In this document: positions 6,058-32,762 of the stretch, piece after piece | Layout of the letters: every line of letters begins with the position of its first letter | Position numbering within the stretch: position 1 is the stretch's first letter | Notes under the pieces: generated by a model | The model's input: the letters and a program-made list of their open reading frames with translations, nothing else | What the model was told of the DNA's origin: nothing | Database searches by the model: none | Program-made: the position numbers and the translations under genes | NCBI GenBank assembly: GCA_000934665.2 | Contig: JYFJ02003767.1 | Location: 1-37,904 of the forward strand | Length of the DNA: 37,904 bases | From: Catajapyx aquilonaris | Lineage: Eukaryota | Direction: 5' to 3'

Positions 6058-9000
6058 AATCAGATTTTTTGTGTGGAGAAAGGTGCAACTTATCACGTGG
6101 CTACGGGTACCGCACCACACATCACACAGTTAACATACATCATATTGCGTCTGGGTATATCATTCGTGTTATATGATCAGTAGTTTCACATGTAGTTTTT
6201 TTTGGCCCCCGCGTGCACACACTCGTTCATTTTTTTTTTTTCGGGTCCGGATAATCACCAATGCACTCTTTTATCCCGAATTTTAAACATTGCGGACACA
6301 TGAAAATGCGAATTTACCTGTACAGTACTGGGAATAACTGCGCAGCACAACGTGGTGTAGCAGCTTTATGTGAAACCATTTGTCTATTTTGGCTACAGCG
6401 AGTGTAGTTTTTGGTAGACTGCTAGTGATTCCGCTGTACAGTGAGCGACGCAGCAGAACCTGATTTTTTTGGCGAAAATCCACAGGAAAAATTTTGTTGC
6501 CTCCTGAATAATGCCCGTGAACCGAATCCATCCGATATCGAATTGCGAATTGGCGCCAAATGCTATATATCCACCACTGCTATACAGTATATAAAAGAAA
6601 ACGAAATACAGATTGCCTTTCGTCGAGTACACACAACGCAATCGACCGCGACAGAAAAAGCCTGCATGCAGTTTTTTTTTTTTCTCCTTAAAAAAAGTCA
6701 GTGTGGTCATCGTCGTGCTCGTCATTGTTGTTGGATCGTAGCAACGAATTTACACTTTTGGGTTGGGATTATAAGAACACACAAACACAGCAAAACAAAA
6801 ACCACAAAAACCACAAAAAAAAAGTTATGCTTCTTCCTCCGAGTTGCGGGGAAGATGACATCGTCGAATGATTTCCAAGCCATGCTGGGAATGACAATTT
6901 TTCTTCCAAAGAAAGTGTATTTGGAAATCACAGCTCAAAAAGTTTTAAGAAGTGTAGAGCAAGGCGGGAGGGTCGTGTTCTCTCTCAATGTGTCGTTTTT
7001 TGTGNCCCCCCATCCTTTTTTTTGTTGAGCAGACTGACGAGGTTATAAAAATCGCAGAGCCTTCCATCTGCATGGCTGAGACAAGTATGTCACTGTTTTA
7101 ATTCTAGTCAATGTCACCCGTTCAGTTTTTGTTTGTACAAAAAATGTATAGTTAGCGACGATAACCGTTATGTTCCCCCAATCTGGATATTATTATTTTT
7201 GAGTGTGTGAGTATGTGTATGGAATATATGGCATGTTGTTGGTAGGAGATCTGCGTTGAGTTCATGGAAACGACGCGTTTCGACGAGTCTAATAATAATA
7301 AAAAAACGAACGCACGTTTTTAAAAATAATAATGAGGGAACAGGAGCTGGTTAGATTACGTTTTACGAAATATTTGCACACCATACTTTTCAATGCAAGT
7401 TTCCTTTTTTTAAAAAAAAAAAAGTTTTGTTTACTAGAAACCGCACCGTAGGATAAGAGAATTTTCATGAAAATATTTGGGACGTGGATATCGGAATCGT
7501 GAAATGGAATTTGGGTCCAAAGGAGAAAAGAGCTTGAACGTTTATAATTTTATATCTCCCTGTGATGAGTTTAGCCAACGAAAAAGAAAGTGATGTAATG
7601 GCAACGGGGGAGGAAAAAGAGAGAAAAAAAGGGGGGAGGCGAAAGATTTCCTACCAACTTTTTTTTCTTGGGCCTGTATGTGCATATTTGGGAGCCTTTT
7701 TTTTTTCCTCAACTTCATCGTGGGTGCGCAGTGCTCGTCATCCGTTAGACCAGCTTGTATGTAGTGCGTCCATTACCAACCAGAAAAAAACAGAGAGAGA
7801 GAAATTATTTCACGTGCAGAGTAACCTGCACGCCATGTTACTTAGGCGGCTGCCACGTTGGAAAAATAAAGCGAGCCAGGTTTTAACCACTGGTTTTTTT
7901 TCCCCGGTAATGTCCTCATTTTTTAAAAAAAATATGGTTCTGAAGGGTTGCATATAACACATGCGAATGTTGCATGCCCCCCACACGTTAATAGGTCACC
8001 AGACTTGGGAATCGATGGCTTCCTTGTCGAAGAGGAGTCATTACGTATGACTAGGAAACCTTGAGGTTTCGATCCATCTACCTGAGCCCCCGTGCAACAA
8101 TGGCTGCCCCACTCGTTTTGCTCAATCTTTAATGGTCAGGAACCCCCTCATTTTAGAGGTCTAATTAGCGAGGGGTTTTGTATGCAGGGCTGGTCGTCTC
8201 CAAGTGCATTCAGGCCCTCTTGCCTCCTCTTCAACGGGGCTCACAATTAGTAATTATGGCGGATGTGGGACCGGAATGTGATCGGGTTGTTTGTGTAGAA
8301 AGTGCGAAAAGATCGATGCAATAATTGGCAGCTGTGTGGCGCTTAACGCCCCAGTTTGTGGCAGGTTGCAGTTTTTGGCACACATACTTGTCAACAGGAT
8401 GGAAATTAATAATTGAAGTGTTGGGCTTCAGGAGCGATTTTTTTTAAAAAGAGAAGCAACAATCATCCTGCATTGTTACCAGACATTCTGCCAGTTCGTG
8501 AAGTGACAGAGGCATCTGGCAAAAAGCAATTAGAGAAATGGGTGAGGACGGAATTTTTAAGATCAGGGTCTCATGTCCATGCCTGCCTGCCGTTGACAGA
8601 ATTTTGGGGGGGATTTTCAATGGAAGGAATTTTTATTGCAGCCTGGTTTGTCTAGCAGGATCTGAAGAAAAAAAAGAGAGAGAGGGAAGTATTTCGGTTA
8701 ATCTGGTTTGAGTGCATACTAACCGCTGCGGGTTGTTCTTATAGGCGATCGAAGGAGTTGGATGCCACGGACGGAAATGGCTTGGGATTCAGCAGGGCCC
8801 CGGTCCAGCACTCGATATCAATATTTTAGGAGGTCCGCCACTGCTGCTTGCTGCTCACGGGTAACCTTACATGGCTGTTCAAGGAAGGGGGGGTTAGAGT
8901 AATCATGCGGACATTTTTTATCCAACCGTTTTTTTTTTCTTCTTCCAGGAGGTGGGCTGCCTTTTGTGTACTAATGCAGAGTGCATGTGGAATGCTGAAG

Positions 9001-9167
9001 GCGCTTTATGAATATTTATGCCCAGGGAAAGTTGGAGTAATTTGTCAGCCTTGTTTCGGACCTCGAGTCGTGTTCTGCAGTGTCTTTAACTGGCTAGGTA
9101 AAGCCTGATGTTACGTGCTGTGATCAACAAGGACAGTGGGCCAGAAATTGAGTGATTGATTGGATAC

Positions 9168-9290
9168 TTTTGGCACAACATCAACTTTGGCTACACTGCA
9201 TCTTTGTAAAAAATAAATTCAATAAAATAAATACATTATTACAGTAATTTCAGCTAGGCCATAAGGCATTGGAAATAAGTGTGAAAGCAT
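9168..9290 (+). repeat. About 120-bp diverged direct repeat, copy 1 (copy 2 at about 11667-11780)
   Basis: ttttggcac(a)aca-tcaactttggctacactg...ctttgtaa...cagctagg...cattggaaataa is shared with 11667-11780. Confidence 0.7.
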
Positions 9291-10400: not shown

Positions 10401-11041
10401 TGCAATATGGCTGTGGGACTAGGGTATAAGAGTAAGCATTTGGGTAGGACGACTCTGGAGGATTGACATATTATGAAACCTGCCCTTTAGATTGCAACAG
10501 GTGCTGCTAGCAGCTGATGGCATGTATGGTCGCATTTATACGCCCACATAGGCAATGCCAAGCATTTAGCCCTTGCTTCACTACTTGTACGTGTAATTAA
10601 AAGTAAATCATAACTATAGGAAAGCCAGTGGTGTTTTGTACTAGTGGAAATATTTTCCAAAATCGAATGAAAATATTGGGTCTATGGCCAAAAAAAAAAA
10701 ATTTGAGTGGATGTAGACAGAGCTCTTATTTGTCAAATATCCATAACTTTTTTTGTGAAGACCTAAAAAAGAGATATCGGCAGAATTGTACTGCAAATTA
10801 TCCCATTTCAAGGCATAAAATTATTACAAAATTTTCCAATCGGATTTGGACTAATTATCCTCATTTCAATAATATTTCTTACAGGGATGTGTATTATTTC
10901 AAATACACTGGGCCTTGATTGCGTTGGGTATTTCAACAGCAATGGGCTGCATACATAAGTTAACTGTAGGACATATTACTCAATTACTCATATTACTTCA
11001 ATTACTCGTTAGTTTGCTTTAAATTCAATTTGTTTTCAATG

Positions 11042-11630
11042 GTATCAGTTACTGATTGGTAGCTTACTGCAAGTTATGAAGTGCTGCAAGTAAAATGTGT
11101 GCTCCCTAATACCTCATTGGCAATTTTCCAAGTCAACTCTCTCCATGACAAAAAGTGTACTGACCTCTTGACATGCGCTGATGGGGAGGGTGGAGCATCC
11201 AGGCCATTTTGACCTCTGCTCACGTAAGCGCCTAGGATGATGGTGGGGATCTCTGGGCCAAAAACCACCTGCAGGTGATTACCCCTCCCTCTTGGACAAC
11301 CCAGGCTTCATCCACTGCATTGGTGGGGTTGGTTCCCTGCAGCTTACACCTGATCTTGTCAGATATATTTAACATATTATGGAGGTGGTGTTTCCGCCTA
11401 ACAATGTCCAATGTAACATACTGGGTCAACAATCCAATTTTTGTGTCAGCCACAAACATGATTTTTCCATCCAGATTTTCCAGATCCATCTTTTCCATCT
11501 CTGAGAGGTCTTCCTTCAGAAAATTCAGACCTCGATTGAATTTCATTATGAAACGTTTGGATAGTTCCTGCCCAGAGCTAAAGGCATCAATTCGGGGGAG
11601 ATTACGTACGAAAGCCCTGTAAGGCATCCG
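11042..11630 (-). pseudogene. Argonaute-like pseudogene fragment (copy D): MID exon only, with a frameshift and a deletion of most of PIWI
   Basis: Acceptor ccttacag at 11617, then ...FVADTKIGLLTQYV...SDKIRCKLQGTN.... A net insertion of about 11 nt near 11270 shifts the frame before VFGPEIPTIILGAYV. At about 11177, PSPS joins directly to HVKR|gtcagtacac, deleting about 900 bp relative to copy A. Intron homology to copy A continues to about 11042. Confidence 0.85.
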
Positions 11631-11666
11631 TGCCACATACCCCAAGAGGGTCAGGCACAAGGTTTC

Positions 11667-11780
11667 TTTTGGCGCAAATCAACTTTGGCTACACTGAACC
11701 TTTGTAAGAGAAAAATTAAATATAATACAGTATTTGCAGCTAGGCTGTAACATTGGAAATAAAATATTATATTGAGCATT
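11667..11780 (+). repeat. About 120-bp diverged direct repeat, copy 2, close to the truncated 5' end of pseudogene D
   Basis: Matches 9168-9290. Confidence 0.7.
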
Positions 11781-12492
11781 AGTAATCGAAAAATATCTGC
11801 CAGTGTGAAAATTGATAAAAATATGTAGCTAACTCCGCCATACACATTTATTGGCAACTATGGCAATTTCACAACGTTACAGGCTCTTCAAAAATGGGTC
11901 TTTGGTTTTTCATTGAAATAAAAAGGTGAAACCGATTAAAAAGTACTCGCTCTGAATATGGGGGGGGGGGAAAAAAGTATAAGCATGTGGTGCAGGAAAA
12001 AACCACCTGAAAACCCATGTTGTAATAACAAAACTTAGCTTGAAATCACACAGGACATGATTGAAATTTTAGTGCATAAAACATAAACCAAAGTGAAATG
12101 TCTTGTTATCTGTTCACTGACAAGTAAAAAAACTCCTTAAATGCAATGAGATGTTGGTTAGAAACAAAAACCACAGCAAAAATATAGGACTTACTGGTAC
12201 CCTGAAGTTACTGAAGATATGTAAGTTCATTTTAGGTTAAGAAGGAGAACCTAATACCCCATCACAAAAAAAAAAACTAAAAAAAAAGTTTCCTGTCTAC
12301 ATAATTATCACAACCAAACACAAGCACAAATTAATGTTACTAGACTTTCACTGGGAAGGAAAAATCCACTACAAGCTGAGACAAGGCAGGTTTTGTCGCA
12401 TGATCCAAACTAAAAGAAATGTTAGCCTAAACTGGTTGGAAATGGCTCTGCTAGTAACAATCCGAACCGAACGATCATGACATATTTTCATC

Positions 12493-15400
12493 CTACGCAA
12501 AATACATAGGGAAGTTTTTGGATAGGCGCTCATGGGTGGCAGTTGCAGATTCCAGGGGCCCCATGTTGTCTGCATCGTATGGCACACCGTCAGCTATGGC
12601 TCTGGAAGTAAATGCATTTTGATTTAGAACCTTCGTCAGAGGAATAATGTCACATGCAATCAGCGTGGTATTTATTTCCCTTGCTGAACTTGTAGAACTT
12701 ACTTGTTTACAAAAGTATCAAGTACAGATTGGTAGCGTACTGCAAATTTTTGAAGTCAGGAAGTGGATGCTGTTCTACACGATCATATTGACAGTTGTCC
12801 AGTGCAACTACTTCTCCAAGATAAAAGTGTACTGACCTATTTACATGCTTCTGTCTCCTACTGGCAACCTTCCTTGCAAAGTGAGTAGGGGTTGTGGTGC
12901 GCACAGTGGCAGTATTTTTCATTGCATTTTTGAAGGACTGGTGGCAACACATTTGTGTGATGTCAGAAACTGAGAGGTCGCTGTCATCCCACAAAAGGTG
13001 GTATCTGGTTGGCCTCAATTTGCCCTGTGGATGTGTGTGCAGAGCATGTTACCCAGCACTTTATATCTATCCTGCACGGTGAATTTCAGGTGAATTTTAG
13101 TAATGAAAATGGGTCAACGTAATTTTCTGATGAAGCTTTCTCATATCAGATGGATTGGACTAAGAGGCAGGGTTGAGTTCTAGTAAGGTAATGTTGAACA
13201 AGGTACTGACCCGTCTTGGATTGTAGCAGATGTTGAATCCAGTCTCCTTTGAAGGGGTAATGGTGTGATTCACTATCACCTTACGGACCATGGTTGAATC
13301 TTCATACTCATCATTTGAGCCCACAGGAGGTATGGTTTTCAACACCCCCACCACTATGAAAGTAATAGCTGGCTTGTAGTCTTGGTGAAGTGATGTGCAG
13401 GCACCACGGATGGCAAGCAACTCCGGCTGCAGCATCTTAAATTCACCATCACTTACTCCTTCCGTGAAAAAAATTATCCGACATGGCTGCTTCTTAGTGC
13501 TCCTGAAATTCAGTGTATGTAACATTTTTGTTATTGCTTCAGGAACAGGTTTTAAAACATTATTTAGGTTAGCATTATCAGTTGGGATCATCAACTGATG
13601 CAGTCTTTGGTTTACCTGAAAAACTGCAGCAGCATGTCCTGTACAACTTCCTGAAGGTCTTGAACAACTGGATCCTGACCTGGCTGCAGCCGAGGGGTCA
13701 CAGTGAAGCGAGTGGCCATCAGGTTGGTGGAGGCACAGATGCCTGCCACTGATGGGGAGGGTGAAGCCCCCTTGTCATTTTCCCCTCTGGTCACATAAGC
13801 GCCTAGAATGATGGTGGGGATCTTCGGGCCAAAAACCAACAAACCTTCCTCTCTGACAACCCAGGTGTCATCCACTGCATTGGTGGTGTTGGTTCCCTCC
13901 ATCTTACATCTGATATCGTCGCACATGCTTGACAGATAACACTGGCGATGCTGGCTGACAGTGTCCAATGTGACACACTTGGTCAACAAACCCATTTTTG
14001 TGTCACCCACATACTTGATGTTTTCAAGATTCGTTGGGTTCTTTCCATCCATAATTATCAAGACCATCTGTAGGTCACGCATCTCGGCGAGGTCATCCTT
14101 CAGTAAATTCAAACCTCTACTGTGTTTTATCATGGATGGTTCAGGTAGGTCTAGCCCAGAACCATGGCTGATCTGGCAGAGAGCATTAATGTAGTCCCTG
14201 TAAGACAAAGTGTAAAGATGCAATACTAATACGCCAACAGGCCCTTAACCTGAATATAGACATGCAATTTGCCCTATAATCACAAGGGAATAATAGAAAA
14301 GAAAGGACCTTTGATTCCTATTACTCTGGTGACATTCATAAACCATGACTCACATTATTTCCTCGTCATTGATGCTGGTCTCTGGTGCCATGATGTATAG
14401 GCCCCAGCTGTGGATTACCATTGGTTCTGCCCACTTTAGAAGATCATGTGTGTACAATACATCAACTCTTGGTGTCTCCTCATCTACATCGGCCTCATAA
14501 GATACTATCAGAGTGTTTGATAACCACTGCATTATTGTCACTCCAACACTTGTTTCTGGAAAGGCCTCATCGATTGTGAAATTAGTGGCTCCCATTCTGG
14601 CCTGACATTGGTCATAAGAGCCAAAAATGCCTGTGATGATAATGCTTGGTTCCTTCTGTTCATCCGGTGACATCTCTCCCTGCCCTCTCTTGATGTGACA
14701 TAGTTCAAGAGGGATATGTTTGGCAATTCCTTCGTGATCTGTCGTAAGGGTTGGAAGCCCTGGGTATCGGATGTGTTTCCCGTAGTGTTCATTATAGTAC
14801 ACCACCAATGACGTAGGGACTCCATCTCGTGAATACTGGCACTCAGAGGCTGGCTCAGACCCAACATCCAACACACGTCTAATGAAAACTTGATGCCGAT
14901 GTTTCCAGATAACCGATAAGCCTGAAGAGCATAAATATGTACTATTACATGCAATGATCAAAGATAATCTTGATGTAATGCTGAGGCCTTAATGCTATTA
15001 GAGTAAATAGCTGTATCAGTTGTCGGAAAAATTCAAACTGGAACTACAAAAAGTGAAATAAAATCTTTAGATGTAAAATTAAAATATGTTCCCAACCCAA
15101 AACTGAAATTGTTCAATTTCGGGCACTCTTGGGACACTCTCATTATTATTTGAATTGGGCGTTGAAACACCCCAGGAATATTTAAAGTCAACATCAAAAG
15201 CAGCAATGTGGGCAGACTACTTCTGAAAAGCAAATTACAACGTATATATAGGTTTACCTTTGATGTGTTTCTTCAGCTCCTCTCTTTGTTGATCGTTTAG
15301 CATGGTGGGTACTTCATTAAGCCCCAGCAGTTTGCACATGTAGTCCAGTGCCTTCTCAACCTTCTTCTTCTTCTCTGTCACTGCAATATGGTTATAATAA

Positions 15401-15693
15401 TATCCAAAATGTAATCAGTATTTTCCAACAATATAGAGAGTATACCAACCAAGAAGTTGCTTCCATCCTATCTGCTGGCTGAGAAAGTCATCTGGCCAAA
15501 TATCTTCCTCTTTCATCTCTTCTCCGAGGTCAGCTGGATCTTCCTCGGATGGGGATGACATGTGAGAGGGTAACACTACTCGTCGTGAGATCTTCACCAT
15601 CTCTTCACCAGCAGTGTTCTGCTGTGGAGTGATCTTTTCCATGGAGTGGTCAGCCTGCTCGGACTCTGGGAGAGCTGTAGATGACACTTCCAT
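12493..15693 (-). CDS. Divergent Argonaute-like protein, copy A (about 701 aa; 7 exons: 15693-15450, 15380-15258, 14921-14354, 14197-13616, 13502-13211, 13024-12837, 12601-12493). Short acidic N-terminus, degenerate L1, then PAZ-L2-MID-PIWI; slicer-dead
   Basis: PAZ: YYNEHYGKHIRYPGLPTL...HIPLELCHIKRGQ. MID: IKYVGDTKMGLLTKCV. PIWI: PTIILGAYVT, PSVAGICAS, STKKQPCRIIFFTEGVSDGEF, AIRGACTSLHQDYKPAITFIVV, GKLRPTRYHLLWDD. C-terminus is MYFA*. All introns are GT-AG with consistent phases (2106 nt CDS). Confidence 0.88.
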
Positions 15694-16204
15694 GTTTGCG
15701 GATGGGAGCTGTCCAGTGATCACACCCGCAGCACCATCAACCTTCAACAGTGCTGGTGAGTGTCTCTCTTGGAAAACAAAATGGCGTCGGCCACTAAATT
15801 AACGGTTTTTTTTGGACCAATCACACCCCCTCACTCTGATCTGGCCAATCCCTGGCCGTCTTATATCTCTTCGTTTCCTCAACTGGCCGCTAGAGAGTGC
15901 TGCAGTGCATTTAGTGTATAATAGTTATCAGTTTGAGCCAGTAGCTGTTTCACAAAAAAAAACAGCGACATATCAGAATAACTGTTACATCAAAAACTGT
16001 TGGCGAAAGGAGAAATCCATCAGGAATAGTAGCTATTTAAATATTTTATTCTTTAAACTGAACAAGGTATTGCGTATCTCACAAAGTCATACGCCAAAAC
16101 CATACAAATGTTTTGTAATGAGCACGTTCCTTCACTATACAGAAGACAGATTTTTCTGCAAAATTATAAACGTACGCTCATTATGAGTACGAAGATGAAA
16201 TAAA

Positions 16205-16500
16205 TTACCTGTAATTGAAGCCCTGCTCTGATTTTATTGACAGCCATGACACACATATGACAAGCAGTATGATTACAATAAAGAGGAGGGTTGAATATTT
16301 CACTGAAAAATAAAACTACCGGAAAATACCCCATCTTAGAGAGATAAAAAAAGAAGAAAATCCTTTGACCAAAAATGACATATGCGAGTAACCAGTTCCT
16401 TCCTTTTTTTAAAAAATCACTTGATAGCCCATGAAAATAATTATTTCGGTAATGCACCGTAATAAAAATTCAGGTTCATGACAGTTTGAAACTGTAAGTA
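16205..16500 (-). repeat. Orphan copy of the Argonaute-B/C 3' UTR, including AATAAA (16233-16238), with no adjacent Argonaute coding exon
   Basis: Colinear blocks shared with 17268-17585: ttttattga, ttcactgaaaaataaaact, tagcccatgaaa, tttg(g)aaactgtaag. Confidence 0.65.
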
Positions 16501-17317
16501 AATGTGTGTGAACTACACCTGTCTGTCAGTTAATTACTTGAATGTAGGGCACATATAAGCTGTCGTATATTGGGGGAGGCATGTACGGAAATCCAGAATA
16601 TGACTTACTAGCAGGATACCCGGCGTTGCTCGGGTTATGAAATACTTTTCCATAGGAGTGACTCATTGATGTGGTAGTTACCTTTGCAATAATTATGGCT
16701 ATACAATGTTGGCACATGGAGCATAATATATTATTGCTTGTGCATGAAGTCCAAGCACCAAGGTGCAGATGTCAGATTGTAAGAAAATACACGATACACC
16801 TTAAAAATCCAGCAAAAGTATGTAATGAAAAATTGAAGGTTGTGCAGTAAATGTAGAATAGCATTGAAAGACCGGCACCTCTCTTAGTCATTCTCCAACC
16901 CCAAAATGGCCAACCTGGCCAGGGTGACTGTGCCAGCAGGCAGCTATGGGGTCGCTGGAGAACTCAAGGCCCACTACCATGTCAAGGTAATCAATGAGCT
17001 TTTTTAAAAAAAATTAATGTGAATAAAATGGCTTGGTGCTAATCTGTAGTGGTGTGATGAATTAGGATGTAAGGAAGTGAGCGTGAAAGAGTGTCAGGAA
17101 GAGCAAGAGAATAGTAGACAGTGTAGTAGAGAGTGTAGTAGCCAAGGTATCATGAAGTAATGATCAGCCCAGGCGGTAATTGGCGCAGGATTCCCTACCA
17201 ACACGTTTACTGTATAAATATACCTACACATGATGAGTACAAAGGTGACGCAATATGATGGTACTGGTACCTGAAATGTGAATAATGGTTTCAGGTAGTC
17301 ATGCCTTGATAATAAGT

Positions 17318-17323
17318 TTTATT
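17318..17323 (-). terminator. Polyadenylation signal of Argonaute-like copy B
   Basis: AATAAA on the - strand about 310 nt after the stop, in the same context as copy C (atgccttgataa...ttttattga). Confidence 0.55.
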
Positions 17324-17634
17324 GAGAAACACGAAGAAAAAAAAATTGTAATTTTCATTATAAAGGCAGGTCTGATTAGTTCACTGAAAAATAAAACTTG
17401 ATACCAGTACTTGACTTGAAAATCCAATCCTACAAAAAAAAAACAGAAAAAATCCATCTGACATATACTTGCTCTTGTAACACATTCCTCACTTAAAAAA
17501 ATAAATAAATCACCAGCTAGCCCATGAAAGCAATATTTCAAGATCATAATAGAAATTGTCACCCAAAATCTTTGGAAACTGTAAGAATAATTATGTAAAA
17601 AAAATAATCAAAGGACAAGTCTTGCTGTTTCATA

Positions 17635-20600
17635 CTAAAGAAAATACATGGGGAAGTTTTTAGACAGGCGTTCATGGAGAGCTGTTGCAGATTCCAGAGG
17701 TTTCAGATCCTCTCTGTTGTAGGGCACTCCAAGAGCCATCACACTGGAAAGGACAAGTCTGAATTTAGTCCACATATAATTGCACACGGCACAACACACA
17801 GTCTAATTTTTGAATCATTTCCACAATCGATGCTGAGAGAAGGGCAGAAGGTATGAAGAAGGGAAAATATTTTTAGCATTTTACAAACACCCTGTAACTC
17901 CTCTAAAAATAAGAGCGTGGAAATTTCGCATTGTAGTGCAGCCCAGAGGCGAATATGTAAAGGGGGCGAAAATTACAGGGACGACAACTCTGGGGGCGAA
18001 AGCTCCAGGAGGCATAAAAAGTATGGGCCACGACTCCTGTTCCAACCCTTGTATGAGCACAATTCAAAAAAAAAAAAAAAATGCATGCTGAGTTTAAATT
18101 TTAAAATTGATCAGGTCTGCAAAAGAGAGTGCGGTGAGGGAATAAAAAAGGCATTTCAATTTTAATTCTAAAAGTTCAGAGATAGGGACGTTTTGGAGAT
18201 ATTACAGTATCGGAAACAGACCATCAGAATGGTAATCTCTGAAAACATGTTCACTGGGTTACACTGTAGAAACACCGTAACTCAAAAACTGGGTGAGGGT
18301 GAAAGTCATATGCATGCCCGCACTAACCCCTACTGAGTCAGGTGGGATTAGGGCCGGGTAGTTACCAAGAAAGTAAAATGTAAATAACTGACCACTTGAT
18401 GAACCGAAACCTCCTTTTGGTAGCCTTCACTGCATAGTAGTAAGGGGCAGTGTTGGCTTGCACATAACCTCCTCTTTTAGCGAAATTGTCAGGAAAGCAC
18501 AAGTGGATGCCTATTTGTACAATGTCATCCACTGAGAAGTCACTGTCGTCCCAAAGAATAAAATAATCCACTGGCTTCAATAAGCCCTGGAAGGATAAAA
18601 TCAGGAATTAGCATACCAGGTTATATCATTATCATTCTACATTGACCATGGTAGAAATGACATAGACTGACTTTCAGGGAACACATATACATTCGCATGA
18701 AGAAAGTTCATGAAACAGTGATTGTCGTGGTGTGAATGGATAAGTATTTACATTTCCTGGCCGGTAGCACACATTGAATGGAGTCGTACTTGTGGGGGTC
18801 AAAGTGCAATTCACTACTGTTCCTGAAAATCCATGGTTTATGAGCTGCGTCTCATTTTTCCTGCATTGTTGCCAGGAATGGACATCAGTGTTAGCAACCA
18901 TGCAAGTGATGGCTGGCTTGTAGTCAGGGTGGAGGGATGTGCAGGCACCGCGTACTGCTAGAAGCCAGTTGTGCAATGCATCATAGGAATGATTGCTAGT
19001 CAGTTCTTCCATCAAGATTATTACTCGGCATGGCTGCTTTGTGGTGCTCCTGAAAAGCAGTTCATTAAAATACATCTTTATTCTTCATTTAAGCACAGCT
19101 TTATTTAGGAACAGTTATTAATTTTATTATGATACTTGTTTGGTTCATGCTGGGCATCTTAAGCTTACTTAGACCATACCTGAAAAACATAAGAAGCATG
19201 TTCTTCGCAATTTCCTGAAGGTCTCTGATATTTTCTTCCCCACTAGGCTGCAGCCTAGTAGTTGTAGTGAATCTGGTGGCTATCAAGTCTGTGGAGGCGC
19301 ATACGGCTGCCACTGACGGGCAGTTTGGCGACCCCAGCATATTAATATACGCACTCAGAATGATGGTTGGCAACTCCGGGTTAAATATCACACGATCTAC
19401 AGCAAACTGGGCACCATATGACAGGTTTGTCATACTGGATCCTGCCATCATGGCACTCATATCGTCAGACAGCTGAGACAGAAACTGTGCACGCCTTGCC
19501 ATGAAATTCTTTTTGCTCACACACTTGGTCAGCACTCCCACTTTTGTGTCGGCTACAAGCTTGACAGCGGATACCATGCCCTTGACGCACATAACTACCA
19601 GCACAATTTGCAGATCACACATATTTGCCAGGTCATTCTCCAGGTTTTGGAAGAATCGTATTGTGGAAGGTTGCGGTAGTTCCAGCCCATGGCCAATGGA
19701 ACTGATTGCACGCAGCGGTGTGACAAATCTCCTGGGGAAGTTATGAAATATGAGTAGTTGATCTCTTAATAATTCATTCACAAAGTATAATTGACTCTGA
19801 CAAGTGAGTGGAAAGTAAGGATGGGTTCAATTGTGACAAGTACAAAAATGACTATTACTCACTCTATGTCACTGAGGCTGATCTCTCCCACGACATATAT
19901 ACCCCAGCTCTTCACAATCAGCTTATGGCCAGTTGACATGTCCAAGTAGTTAAGTCCACCTGCAGTCATATCAGAGCCCTGCACGCATTCAGTGGCATGC
20001 TTCGCACCTTGCTTAACAATCTGTAAGCCTGGAAAAAAATGAAATGTGCATGAACATTATGTAATGTAATGGTACACAACTATCAAAATTTTCATTGGTA
20101 AGCATAATTCTCACCTACCTGAAGTACAGGGTCATTGGTACTAAAATAAGTCCTTGTTTTGGTGTCCAACATAAAAGGAGCATCAAAAGTTAGACAAGTC
20201 AAAAGAAGTAGTAGTGTGAATGGACCTTTTAATAATTGGTACGGATTGATCGCGTTATTTGTGTTACAATCATATTCTAGTTGTAGTACCTTTTATGCAC
20301 TTCGTCAGCTGTTGCTTTTGCTGGTAATTCAGCTGCATGAAGACATCGTTAAGCCCCAGCACTTTGCACATAAAGTACTTCAGAACTGGAAGTGCCTCTT
20401 CAACCGTCTTCTCTGTCACTGCAATGGTTATATCCAAAATGTAATCAGTATTTCCCAACATGACAATAAGAGGACCAACCCTTAATAATCCCCTTCCATC
20501 CTATCTGTTGCTTCAATAAGAAGTCATCTGGCCAAATATCTTCCTCTTTGCTTTCTTCTCCTAGCTCAGCTGGGTCTTCCTTGGATTGAGATGACACGTC

Positions 20601-21248
20601 TGAGATGACATTTAGGCTCCCAGGCTCTGAACTTATCACCTGGAGCACTACTGGTGCTTCCTCTGGATTAGTCGAAGCACAGGCAATGATTTCTTGGTTG
20701 GAGGGAGTTATCGCAACCAGCTTTGTGCCACGCTGAAGGTATAACATATATTGAGATGTCAGCTGTACATCTCCCTTGCGATTAACCTTCACCTCATACT
20801 TATTGATACATAGAAAGTTATGTTGCATTTCATTTTCAAGCAAACGAATGTAATACACATGTTTTTTCTTATTTTCAGGATTAAGAAATAAAGTGTGTCA
20901 GACACTTACTTCGCTCACAGCATCATCAGACTTGGTAGCCACTTCACGCTTGTTCCTTCCAACAATAGGGAGGTCATCATCCTGGGTGCCTGTGGTGGAA
21001 TCCCCTGCTGACAATCTCGTCTGTGAGACTTTCTCTTCACCAGATTCATTTTGTGGTGGAATTATCTTTCCCATGGAGTGATCAGTGATCTCCTGTGCAT
21101 GACCTTCCTGCCCTTGCCCTTTCTCATCTCCAGCAAGGGACTGACGGAAGCCAGGATCACCTGAAGCTTTGGAGTCAACCGAGGATCCGTGTGTGTGAGA
21201 TGTCGTGGCAGGCTCAGAAGATGAGAGAGTGGGAAATATCGCACCCAT
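17635..21248 (-). CDS. Divergent Argonaute-like protein, copy B (about 679 aa; 8 exons: 21248-20910, 20732-20480, 20418-20290, 20028-19863, 19731-19180, 19049-18752, 18586-18393, 17743-17635). PAZ core deleted in frame; MID-PIWI retained; slicer-dead
   Basis: Motifs VKLVADTKVGVLTKCV, PTIILSAYIN, PSVAAVCAS, AVRGACTSLHPDYKPAIT, LKPVDYFILWDDSDFS, APYYYA; C-terminus MYFL*. Exon 4 is 166 nt versus 577 nt in copy C. All splice sites are canonical and the frame is intact (2040 nt). Confidence 0.85.
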
Positions 21249-21818
21249 TTTGGACGGACGGTCCGCACCAAAAGGGATGGCCTTGAAGCGATGATGGCTG
21301 GATTTCACTGCTCTTTCCAATCCCTGCTGTAGTAGTCTCCATGTGCTTGGGCACCTCTATCTAACCTAACCAAGGTTGCCAGTAACCAGCCTAATTCCCC
21401 CCACCAGCCACCAGAGGATGCATCCAGGGGTTTAAAATAATATCAGTTAGTATCATAAGTTATATAGTTTGAGATATTAGTTATTTGCTGGACTTAGCAG
21501 CCTTAAAATAACTGTTAGACATTTTTTTTTAACATACAGTACATTACCTGCACAGAGATTTGCATCGATCTAGCCTGTCATCTGCACCTGTAATTGTCAT
21601 TATTGCTTTCGTTAAAGTGTATCACCTTACGTCAAAGGTTACCTTCAAATTACATCGGTACAATAATTTAACTCTGCACAAACGTAACGCTGGCAACAAA
21701 ATGTCAATGTGTAGGATTCACTACAGAAGGTTTGACTGCATGAGTAATGTACACACACACACAATTACCTGAAATGTGAAAATGATTTAAAAGCGTTATG
21801 CCTTGATAACAATCAGGT

Positions 21819-21824
21819 TTTATT
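21819..21824 (-). terminator. Polyadenylation signal of Argonaute-like copy C
   Basis: AATAAA on the - strand about 155 nt after the stop, homologous to the copy B signal. Confidence 0.5.
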
Positions 21825-21979
21825 GACACACAAAATAAGAAGTAAAAAGAGTTGTTTTCCAATTACAAAAAGGAGGGCTGATTATTTCACTACTATGGTA
21901 ATACAAATGATCATTTTAAACTAAGAGAATTAAAAAATAATAATTCAAACCACAAGTGCAAAAGTTTTGCTATTTCCTC

Positions 21980-24900
21980 CTACATAAAATACTTGGGGAA
22001 GTTTGTGGACAGACGCTCATGGATAGCTGTTGCAGATTCCAGAAGTTTTAGATCCTCTTTGTTGTAGGACACTCCAAGTTCCATGGCGCTGGAAAGTAGG
22101 AGTCTCAATTTACAACACGTAATTGCACAGGTATTAACAGAGAGTGTGATTTTCGCATTGCCACAGTTGATGCTGAAGTAAATATTTTTCTACGTAATTG
22201 TCTTTAGTGGAACTAACTCACACTACTACCTACAGGGAAATAATGGGGCACTGGCATGTTTTCACGATTCTAAAAAGGTTCAATTCAATTTTTCAAAGTT
22301 ATGGTATGTGTTTAGAGATACTCTTTTCTTCCGGAGGTGGAGAAAGGTCATTCACAAGCACTGTGACTATCCTAAATCTTTGAAACCCCTAAGGTGGTGT
22401 ACATAACAGACCAGTTTACGAGCCGCTGCCTCCTCTTGGCAGCCATCGATGCATAGTAGTAAGGGGCAGTGTTGGCGGGCATATTACTGGATCCTCTTCT
22501 AGCAGAATCCACAGAAAAGCACAAGTGACTGGCTATTTGTACGATGTCATCCACTGAGAAGTTACTGTCGTCCCAGGGGAGAAAATACTTCACTGGTTTC
22601 AATAGGCCCTGGAAGAGGAAAATCAGGAATTATTATTTTATCATTGTGATCTTACATGGTAGGAATGACATAGAATCACTTTCCGGTCACTTGGTTTTTC
22701 TCTGTGCCCATCCAGTAACTTAATGCATATTCTACCAACTCCCAAGGTGTGGGCTGGAATGCGATTAGGGTGAGGGGATGGTTATACAAGTCGGCAGGTT
22801 GGGAAAAGGTTGCAATGAAAAAAAGCTGTAAGTAAATGAATAAGTACTTAACTTTCCTGGTTGGTAGGGTAGATTGAATGGTGTCTTCTTTGCAGGGGTC
22901 ACACCGTGATTCACTACTGTTCCTGATAATCCGTAGGTTGTAAGACTGACCTCATTTTTCCAGAACTGTCGCCAGGAATGGACATCAGTGTTGACAACAA
23001 TGAAAGTGATGGCTGGCTTGTAGTCAGGGTGGAGGGATGTGCAGGCACCACGTATTGCTAGAAGCCAGTCGTGCAATACGTCATGGGACTCATTGTCAGA
23101 CAGTTCTTCCATCAAGAATATGATTCGGCATGGCTGCTTCTTAGTGCTCCTGAAAAGTGGTTATCATTACATCACCTATTCTTTATGGGAGCAGTCACCA
23201 AACTCAGGACAATGTTTGCAAAGTCTTATTTAGACCATACCTGAAAAACATTTGAAGCATGCCCTTCACCATTTCCTGAAAAGCTCTGCTGACATGTTCT
23301 TCTCCAATAGGTAGTAGCCGAGTGGTTGTGTTGAAGTTGGTGGCCATCAAGTCTGTGGAGGCGCATACTGCTGCCACTGATGGGACGGCTAGCGACTCCT
23401 TGGCGAGCTCCTTGGTCACATGTGCACTCAGGATGATGGTTGGCATTTCCGAGGTAAATATCACATGCTCTACAGCAACCTGGGTGCCATACCCCAGATG
23501 TGTGACACTGCTGGAGCCTTCCATCATGGCATTAATATTGTCGGACAGCTGAGACAGAAACTCTGCACTCCTTGCCATGAATTTATCTTGCGTGATGCAC
23601 TTGGTCAGCACTCCCACTATTGTGTCAGCTACAAACTTGACACGGGGAAGCAAGACCTTGTCAGACAGAACTACCACCACCAACTGGAGGTCACGCATCT
23701 CTGATAGGTCCTCCTGCAGGAGGAGTACATCTTGGGAAATTTTTATTATGGAAGGCAGGGGCAGTTCCAATCCATGGCCAATAGAACTGATTGCACGGAA
23801 CTGCTTCACAAATCCCCTGGGGAAGTAATGAAATATTAACAGACCTTTTAATGATCACTTATAAGTTAGTGGAAAGGAAGGGTTGGTTCAATCTTGACAA
23901 GTAGTACAGAAAGGACCCATAACTCACTCTATGGCACCATTGGTAAGCTCTGCGATGACATATATACCCCAGCTCTTGAGAATCGTCTTACGGTCTGCCA
24001 GCACATAATTATTGATTCCCCTTTCAGTCATCTCACCATCTTCCTCATGTGCCCCGCTTGTCTGTCCTCCCTGGGTCTTTGGTGCCATCTCCTGTGCCTG
24101 TTCGTCACAGCCAGCACATGCATTTTGCAACGTGACCTGCTGGCAGGCCTTATCAACCTCCATTAAGTCCATGGGTCTGTCTGGATTCTGCTTCTGACAG
24201 TGGTTGGCTTCCAATGTCCCTCTGCTTGGGGTCTCATCCTTGGTCACCCTCTTTATTATTTGCCCTTCTTTTATCCAACCAATTTCCATGGGGATTCGTT
24301 TCATGTAATGTACTACCCCACATTCCAGAATAGGGAGCCCTGGATAGCGGAGATAGGTCTCATAGCGTTGAGCAAAGTAATCTGCCACTGTAATTTGCCT
24401 GACTCCTTTCCAAAAAAATTCAGACTCAGAAGCTGACTTGGATCCAACATCCTCCACGCGTTCAGTGGTAAGCACATGACCACGTTTATATTCAATCTGT
24501 AATCCTGGAAATAATGACATGTGTATGAGCATTATTGTATACATAGTAACTATATGTAACCATCGAAATTAGATTTGTGCACTATTATCTTCTTTGTTGC
24601 ACAATAAATCACAACGTAGAGCTCTGTACCTTTTATGTACTTCATCAGCTGTTCCCTTTGCAAGTCGTCCAGCATGGTGGGTACTTCAGTAAGCCCCAGC
24701 ACTTTGCAAAGAAAGTCCAGAACTGGAAGTCCCTTCTCAACCTTCATCTCTGTCACTGCAATGGTTATATCCAAATTGTAATCATTATTTCCCAACATGA
24801 CAGTAAGAGGAACCAACCCTTGATGCTCTTCCATTCTATCTGCTGGCTGAGAAAGTCATTTGGCCAAATATCCACCTCTTTCCTCTCTTCTCCTAGGTCA

Positions 24901-26524
24901 GCTGGACCTTCCTTGGATGGGGATGACATGTGAGAGGGTAACACTTGGTCATTTGAGATGGCAGGGACATCTGGACTCATTCCCTGGACCACTACCGGTA
25001 ATTCCTCTGGATGAGTCGAAGCACAATCAATGACTTCTTGGATGGAGGGAGTTTTCGCAGCTGGCTTTGTCTCACCCTGAAGGTACAGTTGAGAAGTCAA
25101 AACCTTCACATGCTCCTTGTGATTAACCTACACCTCACACTGAATGCATTGATTCCTTTTCAACCAAACACATCCATTTTTCATGGCACCTCTATGGCAC
25201 CCTGACACATTTGAACATACAGTACATTTCCGTAGCCGTCTCTTACATACATTATGGAATGTCAATTTCTCATCATTTAAATTACTCAAGTTCAACTAGC
25301 CCATTATTGTGATTTTATCTGTTACAGACTCACCTCGTCATTTACAGCTCCATCGCCATCAGACTTGGCAGCCACTTCATGCTTGATCCTCCAGATGAGG
25401 AGGCCATCATCCTGGGCTCCTTGAAAGTTTGTGGTTGAATCTGCTGGCGGTGACAAACTCTTCTGTGTGGTCCCCATCATCTCGTCACCAGGATCAACCT
25501 CACAGTGAGTATTATTCTGTGGTGGAGTTGTCATCATTCCCATGGAGGGATCAGTGATCTCCTGGACCTGACCTTCATCCTGCCCTTGTCCTTTCTCGTC
25601 TGCAGCAAGGGACTGATGAAAGCTAGTGTCGCCTATAGCTCCATACATCTCTCCATCATCAGCCATCAGGTCATCCTTGGTTTCTTGCTGGAATGTTGTG
25701 GCCGAATCTGCTTCTGACAAACTCTTCTGCGAGATCTTCAGCATCTCAGCATCAGAGTCAACCACATGGTCAGTATTATGTGAAAGAGCTATCTCTACCG
25801 AGGAGCGATCAGTGATCTCCTCCCCTTGTCCTTTCTCTTCACCAGTAAGGGGCTGATGACTGTCTGTGTCACCTGAAGCTTCATTCATCTCTCCGTCATC
25901 AGCCATCAGGTCATCCTTGGTTTCTTGCTGGAATGTTGTGGCCGAATCTGCTTCTGACAAACTCTTCTGCGAGATCGTCAGCATCTCAGCATCAGAGTCA
26001 ACCACATGGCAAGAGCTAATAAGCTCTTGCACATGGTCAGTATTATGTGAAAGAGTTATTATCTCTACCGAGGAGCGATCAGTGATCTCCTGCACTTGAC
26101 CTTCCTCCCCTTGTCCTTTCTCGTCACCAGTAAGGGGCTGATGACTGTCTGTGTCACCTGAAGCTCCATACATCTCTCCATCATCAGTCATCAGGTTATC
26201 CTTTGTTTCTTGCAAGTTTGTAGTTGAATCGGTTTCCATATTGTTCACTGAGAGCTTAATCATCCTTTCGACAAGGTCAACCATGTGATCAGTGTCCTGT
26301 GACGGATTCATCTTGTCCTTGGGGGGAAGGGTGATTTCCTGAATCTGATCATCCTGATTTTCATCTTTCTCATCTCCAGCAACGGAGTGACGGGACGAGC
26401 CAGCATCACCAGATGCTTTGTCGTCAACCAAGGACAGGGAACAGTGAGGATCGACATGAGATGACTGGGACGGAGCAGGCTCAGCAGGCTCAGATGCTGG
26501 GAGAGTAGCAGATGTCACATCCAT
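21980..26524 (-). CDS. Divergent Argonaute-like protein, copy C (about 1110 aa if intron 6 is spliced at the homologous site; exons 26524-25334, 25076-24818, 24755-24630, 24504-23928, 23816-23241, 23149-22852, 22608-22412, 22088-21980). Long acidic repeat N-terminus, then PAZ-MID-PIWI; slicer-dead
   Basis: PAZ: TVADYFAQRYETYLRYPGLPILECG...IPMEIGWIKEGQ. MID: VKFVADTIVGVLTKCI. PIWI: PTIILSAHVT, PSVAAVCAS, AIRGACTSLHPDYKPAITFIVV, KYFLPWDDSNFS, APYYYAS. Ends KYFM*. The intron-6 donor reads AAG|TTAAGT, which is non-canonical. Confidence 0.8.
25410..26420 (-). repeat. Coding tandem repeat in exon 1 of copy C: about 4 units of about 80-95 aa (ASGD..HQ.L.GDEKGQG..QEITD..S...DS.T..Q..KDD)
   Basis: Sequence at 25681 and 25921 is identical over more than 50 nt (240-nt period). 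The repeated peptide is visible in ORF 25322..26569. Confidence 0.9.
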
Positions 26525-26799
26525 ATTGGAGGTCCGGTGAATGCCACACCTGAAGCGGCACAATTCCAACGGTGAGTGGACAACATATCATATGTGCTAG
26601 CTTGAGCAACGCCATTCTGGTTTATGACCAGCTGCCCATTCATGCTTTACGTGAACTAAACCTATGTGACATTGAACTATTGAAGATAGCGCAATGATTG
26701 CGTCAAAAGCATGGGACCGTATCCCGTACGCCAACTAAGCGCCATGCAAGTACCAGTATTACACGCAGCCCTGGGCATACCCTCACTTATTCTTCTTTT

Positions 26800-29573: not shown

Positions 29574-29946
29574 CTGCACGTAAAGGCATGCAAAGTGTGA
29601 CTTTAATTAGCCTGAAGGGCATTATCACAGGATGTGCTGGTGCACAAGCTAATGGGACCAAAACGTGAATAACAACAACAAATGCATGATACCAACAGAA
29701 AATTACTTTGCTTAGTCGGACAGCCTAATTGGACCACTTTTTTGAGCGCATGGAGATGCATGCGCGGTACAGCCAACAGCGACAATGAATCCTTGTCAGT
29801 ACTGCAATATGTGACCAATTACTCAAAGGCTGCAGCCACTGTGATGACGCTATGCAATGCCACAATGAAAGTGATGATTTGAGGAGAAAATTGTTGGACA
29901 AATGGGAGCAAAATGTCTGAAGACAAAGAAACTGAGGGATGTGATG

Positions 29947-31525: not shown

Positions 31526-31831
31526 TGTAGTAATTGAGGCGTAACCTGCGTTAATGGTGAACAATATTGCTATTGGGTAGGCCAAAAGGTACTGGTACAT
31601 TTCCAACCCAGGTTCTGTTGCACCTGGCCAGGTACATATCTGGAGGGGCTTACCTTTATTTTAGGCAAGACAGTTATCAATCCATGTGCAATAAAACTGA
31701 CGGGTTTGGGGAACTGCCCTGCCAACCGCTGCAAGTCAAAAGCTCTACATGCCAGTGTTGACTGTCAACAAGGTTGACCTGAATAGTTACCAAGGGAAAT
31801 GGCAACAATTTAATTTTTAGACTTTTCCGAA

Positions 31832-32526: not shown

Positions 32527-32762
32527 ATATCAATAATCTGTTGGCGGGGTTAGCCTCCCAAAAAGGAAGTGCACATTTTTTTGTAGATACCATCAAGAGA
32601 CTCTGAATATTATTTTAGAAATGGGGTATCTATAGCGAGTAATCAATCTTTAGATTAATATAAGCCCTCAAAGAAATGCGACTAATGATAAGTACCAAGA
32701 CAACCACTGCTGCGTCATAAGCAGGAGGAAAAGTATAAAATGGACAAACCCACAGTAATATC

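Follow-up and report, generated by a model that had tools for sequence, protein, structure and literature searches.

The minus strand of the window (the whole 37,904-nt stretch of Catajapyx aquilonaris DNA that was analyzed) carries a head-to-tail array of Argonaute-like genes, with three spliced genes and one truncated remnant between approximately positions 11030 and 26524. These look like fast-evolving, non-cutting Argonaute offshoots rather than plain dead genes. Tentatively, and with slightly less than even confidence, we read the array as a tandem birth-and-death cluster of degenerate, non-slicing AGO-clade paralogues. As judged from sequence comparison, the copies are shown to have arisen through tandem duplication. 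Exon models were built by hand from the sequence alone and then script-checked, giving the following layout.

11030-11648, minus strand: copy 1 remnant, part of a MID/PIWI exon, frameshifted near 11275 and internally deleted
12493-15693, minus strand: copy 2, 7 exons, 701 aa, all introns GT-AG, ends MYFA; modelled exons 15693-15450, 15380-15258, 14921-14354, 14197-13616, 13502-13211, 13024-12837, 12601-12493
17635-21248, minus strand: copy 3, 8 exons, 679 aa, all introns GT-AG, ends MYFL; modelled exons 21248-20910, 20732-20480, 20418-20290, 20028-19863, 19731-19180, 19049-18752, 18586-18393, 17743-17635
21980-26524, minus strand: copy 4, 8 exons, 1110 aa, ends KYFM; modelled exons 26524-25334, 25076-24818, 24755-24630, 24504-23928, 23816-23241, 23149-22852, 22608-22412, 22088-21980
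25334-26524, minus strand: copy 4 exon 1, a 397 aa acidic, low-complexity N-terminal extension
22850-22851, minus strand: copy 4 intron-6 donor, TT (GGAAAG|ttaagt) versus gtcagt in copy 2 and gtaaat in copy 3

An earlier note on this DNA had described three spliced head-to-tail copies with homologous exon structures, and the models confirm them: 19 of the 20 modelled introns have GT-AG ends, with phases that are conserved from copy to copy. The C-termini it gave (MYFA, MYFL, KYFM) belong to copies 2, 3, and 4, respectively, and its open frames of about 2-3.3 kb correspond to coding sequences of 2106, 2040, and 3333 nt, all open in the models. However, it counted two decayed remnants where we found only one locus (11030-11648), as tblastn at E ≤ 0.01 returned no second remnant. 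The cluster is flanked by a CLCA-like protein gene and a thioredoxin-fold protein gene.

A Pfam search over 16 ORF translations found PAZ in two and Piwi in seven, with four of the seven Piwi matches above the gathering score. Piwi is recognizable in exons of all three copies, with a custom Argonaute profile scoring up to 112 bits, and PAZ is found in copies 2 and 4. The missing N domain that the earlier note had described is borne out. Neither ArgoN nor ArgoL1 gave a Pfam match at E ≤ 10, positions 1-203 of the Argonaute profile are unmatched anywhere in the window, and all six near-invariant N and L1 columns are gaps in the copies. The N domain and most of L1 are replaced by an acidic low-complexity extension, followed by an L1 remnant of about 40 aa, for which human AGO1 residues 215-262 give a weak alignment. 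Within this extension, conservation is highest in an acidic stretch that carries two tryptophans retained in all three copies (pN 0.12-0.19).

Copy 2 is the best-preserved member of the cluster. It is ordered as an 81-aa acidic extension (the only residues upstream of its L1 remnant, all low-complexity), L1 remnant, PAZ, L2, MID, and PIWI, and it matches Pfam PAZ at E 8.9e-10 and Piwi at E 2.2e-14. Its top solved match is human AGO2, at a low similarity (E 8.6e-19, 71 bits over ~190 aa of the MID/PIWI exon). In copy 3, a net in-frame 411-nt deletion in exon 4 has removed PAZ and L2; this exon measures 166 nt versus 568 and 577 nt in the other two copies. What remains is the extension, L1 remnant, MID, and PIWI, and neither Pfam nor the custom Argonaute profile finds a PAZ match. 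Copy 4 has an acidic repeat extension, L1 remnant, PAZ, L2, MID, and PIWI, with Pfam PAZ at E 1.3e-10 plus Piwi matches, and the custom profile also matches. Within its exon 1 lies a tandem repeat of 240 nt (25578-26009; 1.8 copies, 91% matches), and the D+E fraction of the 483-aa N-terminal part is 0.21. A domain search of this extension gave only a borderline PEST-like match and no ArgoN. The copy 4 frame is open only with intron 6 spliced at the TT donor, and inspection of the frame by eye found no alternative in-phase donor before the next stop; a splicing defect or a sequence error is therefore probable. The remnant is without PAZ, 5' exons, and last exon. Its 11030-11176 segment resembles the end of copy 2 exon 6 plus the start of intron 6, joined directly to the MID/PIWI fragment. 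It is nearest to copy 2, at dS 0.41.

The residues needed for slicing and guide binding were read from the following exons, numbered by human AGO2.

13616-14197, minus strand: copy 2 exon 4 (MID and first part of PIWI), with an altered 5'-phosphate pocket and D597 changed to Y
19180-19731 (copy 3) and 23241-23816 (copy 4), minus strand: exon-4 homologues, from the alignment to human AGO2 and the 80-reference table
13211-13502, minus strand: copy 2 exon 5 (central PIWI), with T in place of R668, E in place of D669, and other residues instead of the QKRHHTR block
18752-19049 (copy 3) and 22852-23149 (copy 4), minus strand: exon-5 homologues
12837-13024, minus strand: copy 2 exon 6 (C-terminal PIWI), with H807 changed to R and R812 kept
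18393-18586 (copy 3) and 22412-22608 (copy 4), minus strand: exon-6 homologues

In this alignment and table, the DEDH tetrad (D597, E637, D669, H807) is disrupted in all three copies, reading Y-P-E-R in copy 2, Y-E-E-V in copy 3, and H-E-E-S in copy 4, in agreement with the dead slicer site reported earlier. Three of the four residues are replaced in each copy: D597 by Y, Y, and H (copies 2, 3, and 4, an order kept below), D669 by E throughout, and H807 by R, V, and S. Copy 2 has additionally lost E637. R668, an R in 80/80 references, is T, M, and M. No copy retains the QKRHHTR block beside the active site, which argues against canonical guide handling. The guide pocket, which the same note had called rewired, is indeed altered. 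Among the five 5'-phosphate-pocket residues (Y529, K533, Q545, K566, K570), three are changed in copy 2 and four in copies 3 and 4. Y529 is L, V, and L; Q545 is K in all three; K566, a K in 80/80 references, is D, D, and N; and K570 is kept in copy 2 alone, with M in the others. K533 and R812 are kept in all copies. More than two pocket changes were found in none of the 150 nearest library proteins, and the same combination of losses in 0/150.

We extended this comparison to 61 near-invariant columns, defined as at least 90% conserved in the 80 references. In MID the copies keep 6-8 of 13 such columns, in PIWI 16-21 of 33, and in L2 1 of 6, and copies 2 and 4 keep 3/3 in PAZ. Overall, roughly half of these Argonaute positions have been lost, many in a single copy only, and among the 46 columns in MID and PIWI just 11 are altered in all three. 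Since so many changes are not common to all copies, this looks like continuing decay.

The copies are nearer, on sequence comparison, to AGO-type (miRNA/siRNA) than to PIWI-type proteins. For every exon tested, human AGO1-4 lead the solved matches, followed by plant AGO10/AGO1, yeast KpAGO, and QDE-2. A MID/PIWI-exon profile matched 40 AGO-clade sequences in the PDB and no PIWI-clade chains at E ≤ 10. In a tree with 80 references, the three copies group as a single clade with support 1.0, on a stem of 1.34 substitutions per site, with no close sister among those references. Searches for relatives gave no match; two flanking control genes were equally blank, so this result carries little weight.

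Purifying selection on the reading frames is real but weak. Copy 2 differs from copies 3 and 4 by a dS of ~1.2, and copy 3 from copy 4 by 0.37. From L1 to the end, dN/dS is 0.45 [0.34-0.58], 0.42 [0.32-0.52], and 0.65 [0.52-0.84], with all bootstrap upper bounds below 1. Between copies 3 and 4, exons are 79.4% identical (1526 nt) and introns 62.5% (995 nt). Among the 10 exon gaps, eight have lengths divisible by 3, and the remaining two lie side by side and sum to 12; of the 25 intron gaps, 8 have lengths divisible by 3. On both the copy 3 and copy 4 branches, pN/pS is 0.61-0.67. In neutral simulations, 0/20000 runs per copy stayed stop-free, with 10-23 stops expected. However, dN/dS values of 0.4-0.65 are very high by Argonaute standards and no lower than that of the obviously dead remnant against copy 2 (0.66 [0.40-1.04]). 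The earlier idea of one subfamily kept in frame therefore stands in part: the frames are under selection and the canonical features are lost, but the copies are not equivalent, as copy 3 is without PAZ and the copy 4 donor is broken. Unequal copies, high dN/dS, and residues lost independently in each copy favor birth and death with relaxed constraint over one stable new subfamily.

The sequence comparison gives the cluster the following history. In the common ancestor, an acidic low-complexity extension already stood in place of the N domain and most of L1, and the residues for slicing had already gone, along with part of the 5'-phosphate pocket. Weak purifying selection has since held the frames open, and the copies have diverged: copy 2 retains both PAZ-L2-MID-PIWI and clean splice sites; in copy 3, PAZ and L2 dropped out in frame; the acidic repeats of copy 4 grew, and its intron-6 donor is now broken; and copy 1 has been reduced to a fragment. 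The proteins would be unable to cleave RNA. At least copy 2 is most likely, going by its residues, still a non-catalytic Argonaute scaffold whose hold on RNA would be altered. Copy 2 has kept the near-invariant residues of PAZ, as well as K533, K570, R812, and the YF-type C-terminal end; it carries Q545 to K and K566 to D, and has no Y529 stacking residue. Such a protein would bind or sequester partners rather than slice, and without an N-domain wedge, canonical duplex unwinding is not expected of it. The sensor, decoy, or unusual small-RNA-binder roles offered earlier are speculation.

A different gene model is a very unlikely alternative. In it, the acidic exons are non-coding, a mini-intron in copies 3 and 4 is retained or coding, and an internal ATG starts a shorter L1(part)-PAZ-MID-PIWI protein. 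In all three copies, the predicted join of the acidic N-terminal exon to the L1 exon needs a weak GTTGGT donor and a 61-69-nt intron.

24756-24817 (copy 4), 20419-20479 (copy 3), and 15381-15449 (copy 2), minus strand: mini-intron with weak GTTGGT donor

In copies 3 and 4, this mini-intron is 61-62 nt long, 58/61 identical (far above the flanking exons), and open in the L1 frame with an ATG there, and it reads, by a weak match, like an Argonaute L1 strand. In copy 2, however, an 8-nt insertion closes the L1 frame and the ATG is lost, whereas the spliced model fits the reading frame in every copy. All three share a nearly invariant 31-nt core; it could equally represent splicing signals for the weak donor, and an examination for RNA folding gave no fold signal. 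The acidic exons also stay open across 81-483 codons, with dN/dS at 0.32-0.54 when copies 3 and 4 are compared, and all three copies conserve the region of the start codon. The weak donor also bears on a second alternative, in which an Argonaute copy that was already crippled was duplicated and the entire cluster is now decaying, with no copy making a useful protein today. The remnant, the PAZ deletion, and the TT donor all lie in this cluster, and the scattered residue losses and remnant-like dN/dS point the same way. Even so, we consider such relics unlikely, as coding sequences of 679-1110 codons have stayed without stop or frameshift despite a dS of 0.37-1.2, against the expectation of the simulations; exon indels keep the frame and intron indels do not; exons are 17 points more identical than introns; and the dN/dS bounds stay below 1. 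Any inactivation could only be very recent, as may hold for copy 4. Equally doubtful, in our estimate, is a guide-free "pseudo-Argonaute" that loads no small RNA and acts as an adaptor or decoy through PIWI-fold surfaces and the tryptophan-containing acidic motif; it might act by competition, either for GW-type partners or for factors of viruses or selfish elements that are aimed at Argonautes. The altered pocket, in which K566 is now acidic or neutral, the poor retention of L2 residues, the lost QKRHHTR block, a copy 3 that stayed in frame without any PAZ, the conserved two-tryptophan stretch, and a dN/dS high enough for an arms-race gene all fit this idea. It is harder to square with the PAZ residues kept in copies 2 and 4 and with K533, R812, and the C-terminal end, which help to hold the guide 5' end and are kept in all copies. 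The shared change of Q545 to K could compensate for the loss of K566, and the likeness of the tryptophan motif to an Argonaute hook is our own reading only.

The copies resemble the animal AGO clade (human AGO1-4; structures such as 4OLA) in PAZ-L2-MID-PIWI order, the MYFA-type C-terminus, K533, R812, C546, and many core PIWI residues, but differ in having no N domain, an L1 of ~40 aa, an altered tetrad, pocket, and QKRHHTR block, and a long branch. Human AGO1/AGO4 and nematode WAGOs are naturally non-slicing, are under selection, and act through partners, and non-slicing Argonautes belong to expanded, fast-evolving gene families in which pseudogenes are frequent. Like the cluster, they have lost catalytic residues; unlike it, they retain the N domain and a working 5'-end pocket. 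In Drosophila Ago2, the N-terminal extension is disordered and includes a variable-number tandem repeat. This protein shares N-terminal repeats, recurrent duplication, and fast evolution with the cluster, but its repeats are glutamine-rich rather than acidic, and the N domain and slicer activity are kept. Published accounts describe recurrent tandem duplicates and rapid evolution for Drosophila Ago2 (PMC4824172, PMC12697358) and birth and death for Caenorhabditis Argonautes (PMC12152482).

Short prokaryotic Argonautes of the SPARTA/SPARSA type are described as MID-PIWI only and catalytically inactive (PMC9097488; 10.1101/2021.12.14.472599). Copy 3 is similarly reduced to MID-PIWI and catalytically dead, whereas the short proteins are prokaryotic, paired with APAZ-effector partners, and still guide-binding. 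Our copies are spliced eukaryotic genes with GT-AG introns, nearest to animal AGOs, and not short prokaryotic Argonautes; the resemblance of copy 3 is at most convergent. It is a bold proposal, and one we hold to be improbable, that the cluster represents a eukaryotic Argonaute lineage under selection without the N-domain wedge, slicing, or canonical 5'-monophosphate anchoring. Its members would be either non-canonical 5'-end RNA binders, through a pocket rewired by Q545 to K plus K566 to D/N, or guide-free adaptors or decoys whose acidic tryptophan motif mimics an Argonaute-binding hook. If this were true, copy 3 would be a eukaryotic counterpart of the prokaryotic short MID-PIWI Argonautes.

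The window carries spliced eukaryotic genes in DNA of about 0.42 GC, and comparison of the window with itself revealed tandem units along the minus strand from about 11030 to 26600. Among 16 stop-to-stop open reading frame translations of this region, Pfam found two with PAZ and seven with Piwi, four of the seven Piwi matches exceeding the gathering score; one borderline PEST-like match was also returned, and six translations had no match at all. No Rfam family was matched in the window. The exon models of three Argonaute-like genes, called copies 2, 3, and 4, were built by base-by-base reading of the units and then checked with a script. The units are as follows.

Predicted gene models and remnant of the tandem series

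11030–11648, minus strand: copy 1, a remnant consisting of a frameshifted, internally deleted piece of the MID/PIWI exon
12493–15693, minus strand: copy 2, predicted model with 7 exons, CDS of 2106 nt, 701 aa, C-terminus MYFA
17635–21248, minus strand: copy 3, predicted model with 8 exons, CDS of 2040 nt, 679 aa, C-terminus MYFL
21980–26524, minus strand: copy 4, predicted model with 8 exons, CDS of 3333 nt, 1110 aa, C-terminus KYFM

Copies 2–4 agree in intron positions and phases. All 20 acceptors are AG, each preceded by a pyrimidine tract, and 19 of the 20 donors are GT. These models reproduce the CDS lengths and outer coordinates of the earlier note, which was made from the sequence alone, and its three C-termini were recovered in copies 2, 3, and 4. 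The same note counted two decayed remnants. With the three proteins as queries, tblastn at E ≤ 0.01 detected no further Argonaute fragment elsewhere in the window, and we therefore count one remnant locus (copy 1), not two. Its MID/PIWI piece abuts sequence resembling the end of copy 2 exon 6 and intron 6. One half of a 112-nt direct repeat of 75.9% identity (9167–9278 versus 11666–11762) sits close upstream of the remnant and the other half 2.4 kb beyond; the repeat may be the trace of another duplication unit.

The best solved relatives of every exon are human AGO2, AGO1, AGO3, and AGO4, followed by plant AGO10, yeast KpAGO, and QDE-2, with the copy 2 MID/PIWI exon reaching E 8.6e-19 against its best solved relative. 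A profile of the MID/PIWI exon searched against the PDB matched 40 AGO-clade sequences and no PIWI-clade chains at E ≤ 10. Both the solved matches and the profile search favor the AGO clade, from which the genes therefore derive. An Argonaute tree was also computed with FastTree from an hmmalign alignment.

We then placed the exons on an Argonaute profile of 848 model positions, made from full-length (800–1050 aa) HMMER matches. The exons map to positions 204–816, and neither strand of the window had any match to positions 1–203. Pfam, which the earlier note had proposed running on the proteins, found PAZ and Piwi, with no match to ArgoN or ArgoL1 at E ≤ 10. Ahead of the L1 linker remnant stand 81 (copy 2), 197 (copy 3), and 483 (copy 4) residues, forming extensions that are acidic (D+E 0.17–0.22) and poor in hydrophobic residues; that of copy 4 includes a 240-nt tandem repeat. 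The L1 exon aligns weakly with human AGO1 residues 215–262 (E 1.3), so 81 low-complexity residues in copy 2 stand for N and L1 sequence of about 215 residues. Judged by profiles and length, the N domain is absent, as had been claimed.

Functional positions were numbered through alignments to human AGO2, and states were counted in 80 reference Argonautes.

Residues at functional positions, in the order copy 2/copy 3/copy 4

D597: Y/Y/H; D in 75 of 80 references
E637: P/E/E; E in 75 of 80
R668: T/M/M; R in 80 of 80
D669: E/E/E; D in 78 of 80
H807: R/V/S; H in 57 and D in 11 of 80
Y529: L/V/L, copy 2 being N by phmmer alignment; Y in 75 of 80
K533: retained in copies 2–4; K in 79 of 80
Q545: K/K/K; Q in 77 of 80
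K566: D/D/N; K in 80 of 80
K570: K/M/M; K in 77 of 80
R812: retained in copies 2–4; R in 70 of 80

The slicer site has lost D597, D669, and H807 in every copy, as well as E637 in copy 2, and slicing would be excluded for copies 2–4. In the MID pocket, Y529, Q545, and K566 are changed in all copies and K570 in copies 3 and 4, and the 5′-phosphate pocket is remodelled, not simply erased. The dead slicer site and altered pocket of the earlier note thus both hold. The QKRHHTR block following the ITFIVV strand is replaced in copies 2–4. Of the 61 columns with conservation of 90% or more across the 80 references, those retained amount to 3/3 in PAZ (copies 2 and 4), 1/6 in L2, 6–8/13 in MID, and 16–21/33 in PIWI. 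Within MID and PIWI, all three copies are altered at just 11 of 46 columns; many losses are therefore not common to all copies.

When 1.84 billion representatives were searched with a HMMER profile, 892 matches reached E ≤ 1e-3 and 86 reached E ≤ 1e-10, but none reached E ≤ 1e-30; the best library match scored 87 bits. In the 150 nearest library proteins, pocket changes never exceeded two, and two pocket changes together with a dead tetrad occurred in one protein only. No close relatives of the copy 2 MID/PIWI exon appeared in a word index of longer proteins. Control searches of the same index with a flanking nucleoredoxin-like exon and a CLCA exon likewise gave no match, and for this reason we do not read the empty searches as lineage restriction; the protein libraries seem to be without near relatives of the source organism. 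Family-specific peptide patterns matched 358 stretches of JGI metagenome contigs, including two Argonaute relatives (29% and 32% identity), and the translated metagenome relative L001 has a canonical pocket and GADVTH. Literature searches, which were not directed to a taxon and are thus weak evidence, returned no published account of an animal Argonaute that lacks the N domain and has an altered pocket, nor do passages of the review-type article PMC12477606 describe such a subfamily.

The flanking genes are a CLCA-like gene (calcium-activated chloride channel regulator; 32700–37904, plus strand), which runs past the window end, and a nucleoredoxin/tryparedoxin-like thioredoxin-fold gene (28837–29606, minus strand). 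The former has a CLCA N-terminal domain at 33095–33433 (Pfam E 1.2e-7) and divergent-looking exons. The latter has its best solved matches at E of about 4e-5 and a long serine/aspartate-rich stretch ahead of the fold; its active-site motif is WSVPC, against WCPPC in the matched thioredoxin, so the first of the redox cysteines seems to have been substituted. Between the two genes lies a 207-aa open frame (31037–31660, minus strand) with one C2H2-like zinc-finger motif and no Pfam match. Long open frames on both strands at 1700–4850 are low-complexity and charge-rich (R/K/E, poly-S, poly-E) and are probably simple-repeat DNA, not genes. A single N falls within the ORF at 6429–7028.

The copies differ in their lesions. 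Copy 3 has an exon 4 of 166 nt, whereas its counterparts elsewhere measure 568 and 577 nt; a net 411 nt has been lost in frame, and with it PAZ and the L2 linker. Neither the custom Argonaute profile nor Pfam finds any PAZ signal left in this copy. In copy 4, intron 6 starts with TT at 22851–22850, where the homologous donor is GTCAGT in copy 2 and GTAAAT in copy 3. Splicing at the neighbouring GT, one base upstream, would put the sequence out of frame and straight into a stop, and reading of the sequence found no alternative in-phase donor ahead of the next stop. Unless the TT reflects a base-call error, copy 4 has thus probably been disabled only recently. The three open-frame copies previously described do have open frames, but one lacks PAZ and L2 and another has a broken donor.

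Next, we asked how the frames have been kept. From L1 to the C-terminus, amino-acid identity is 44% (copies 2 and 3), 43% (2 and 4), and 62% (3 and 4). Nei-Gojobori estimates over the same span, with bootstrap 95% ranges, are listed here.

Pairwise dN/dS of the predicted copies

Copies 2 and 3: dN/dS 0.45 (0.34–0.58), dS 1.18
Copies 2 and 4: dN/dS 0.42 (0.32–0.52), dS 1.24
Copies 3 and 4: dN/dS 0.65 (0.52–0.84), dS 0.37

Copies 3 and 4 share 79.4% identity in exons (1526 nt, without exon 1 and the deleted exon 4) and 62.5% in introns (995 nt). Eight of the 10 exon gaps are multiples of 3, the remaining two being adjacent and summing to 12, versus 8 of 25 intron gaps. Neutral substitution simulated from each CDS at half the observed dS produced a mean of 10–23 stop codons and left 0 of 20000 sequences open. 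Selection has therefore held the frames open for most of their history, in keeping with the earlier note and with dN/dS upper bounds of 0.52–0.84. We reject young pseudogenes: the copies are old duplicates. Constraint on them is weak, however: with copy 2 as outgroup, pN/pS by branch is 0.61 for copy 3 and 0.67 for copy 4, and comparison of copy 2 with the dead remnant yields 0.66 (0.40–1.04), which is no higher.

A mini-intron of 61–69 nt with a weak GTTGGT donor is predicted to link the acidic N-terminal exon to the L1 exon in copies 2–4.

24756–24817, minus strand: mini-intron of copy 4
20419–20479, minus strand: mini-intron of copy 3
15381–15449, minus strand: mini-intron of copy 2

Its splicing keeps the frame in all three copies, with the copy 2 intron absorbing an 8-nt insertion. 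Copies 3 and 4 are identical here at 58 of 61 positions, versus about 78% in the flanking exons and 53–78% in other introns, and a 31-nt core is nearly invariant in copies 2–4 despite the dS above 1 that separates copy 2 from the other two. Structured RNA was rejected (fold z-scores 0.0–0.6). The conservation may reflect splicing signals needed by the weak donor. In copies 3 and 4, though not in copy 2, the L1 frame stays open across the mini-intron, which may therefore also be left over from the L1 strand or encode it in an alternative form. Copy 2 (15232–15577) and copy 4 (24606–24945) share 78.8% identity over a stretch made up of the acidic exon's end, the mini-intron, and the L1 exon. For the acidic-exon tail, pS is 0.15 between these copies and 0.42 for the other pairs, against the overall tree, and this far greater likeness than the tree predicts suggests gene conversion.

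Taken together, the locus is a birth-and-death cluster. An ancestral AGO-clade gene had already lost its N domain, slicing, and part of the guide anchor before several tandem duplications, and its descendants span every stage: copy 2 is clean, copy 3 carries a domain deletion, copy 4 a splice-site lesion, and copy 1 is a fragment. For the proteins, we favor a non-catalytic Argonaute scaffold that would hold RNA in an altered way. Retention of the PAZ invariants, K533, R812, and the C-terminal end would let the scaffold still hold RNA, and the change of Q545 to K in all copies could offset the loss of K566. The main rival is a guide-free adaptor or decoy. This would fit the badly eroded L2 and nucleic-acid channel, the persistence of copy 3 without PAZ, and the acidic motif, with its two tryptophans, that is the most conserved within the extension; the retained residues just listed speak for the RNA-holding scaffold instead. 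The open frames and the exon/intron contrast speak against a second rival, a cluster of relics, except for the very latest period.

Catalytically dead Argonautes are common. If the copies are silent relics, the finding is ordinary, and it becomes striking only if expression and binding of RNA or a partner are demonstrated. If true, an N-domain-less, pocket-remodelled Argonaute whose frame was kept through substantial divergence would be unlike ordinary dead Argonautes and would indicate the extent to which the fold can be pared yet stay useful. It would offer a natural test case for the needs served by the N domain and the MID pocket. The locus is also a compact example of birth and death in an RNA-silencing family, with intact, domain-deleted, and splice-broken copies and a fragment side by side.
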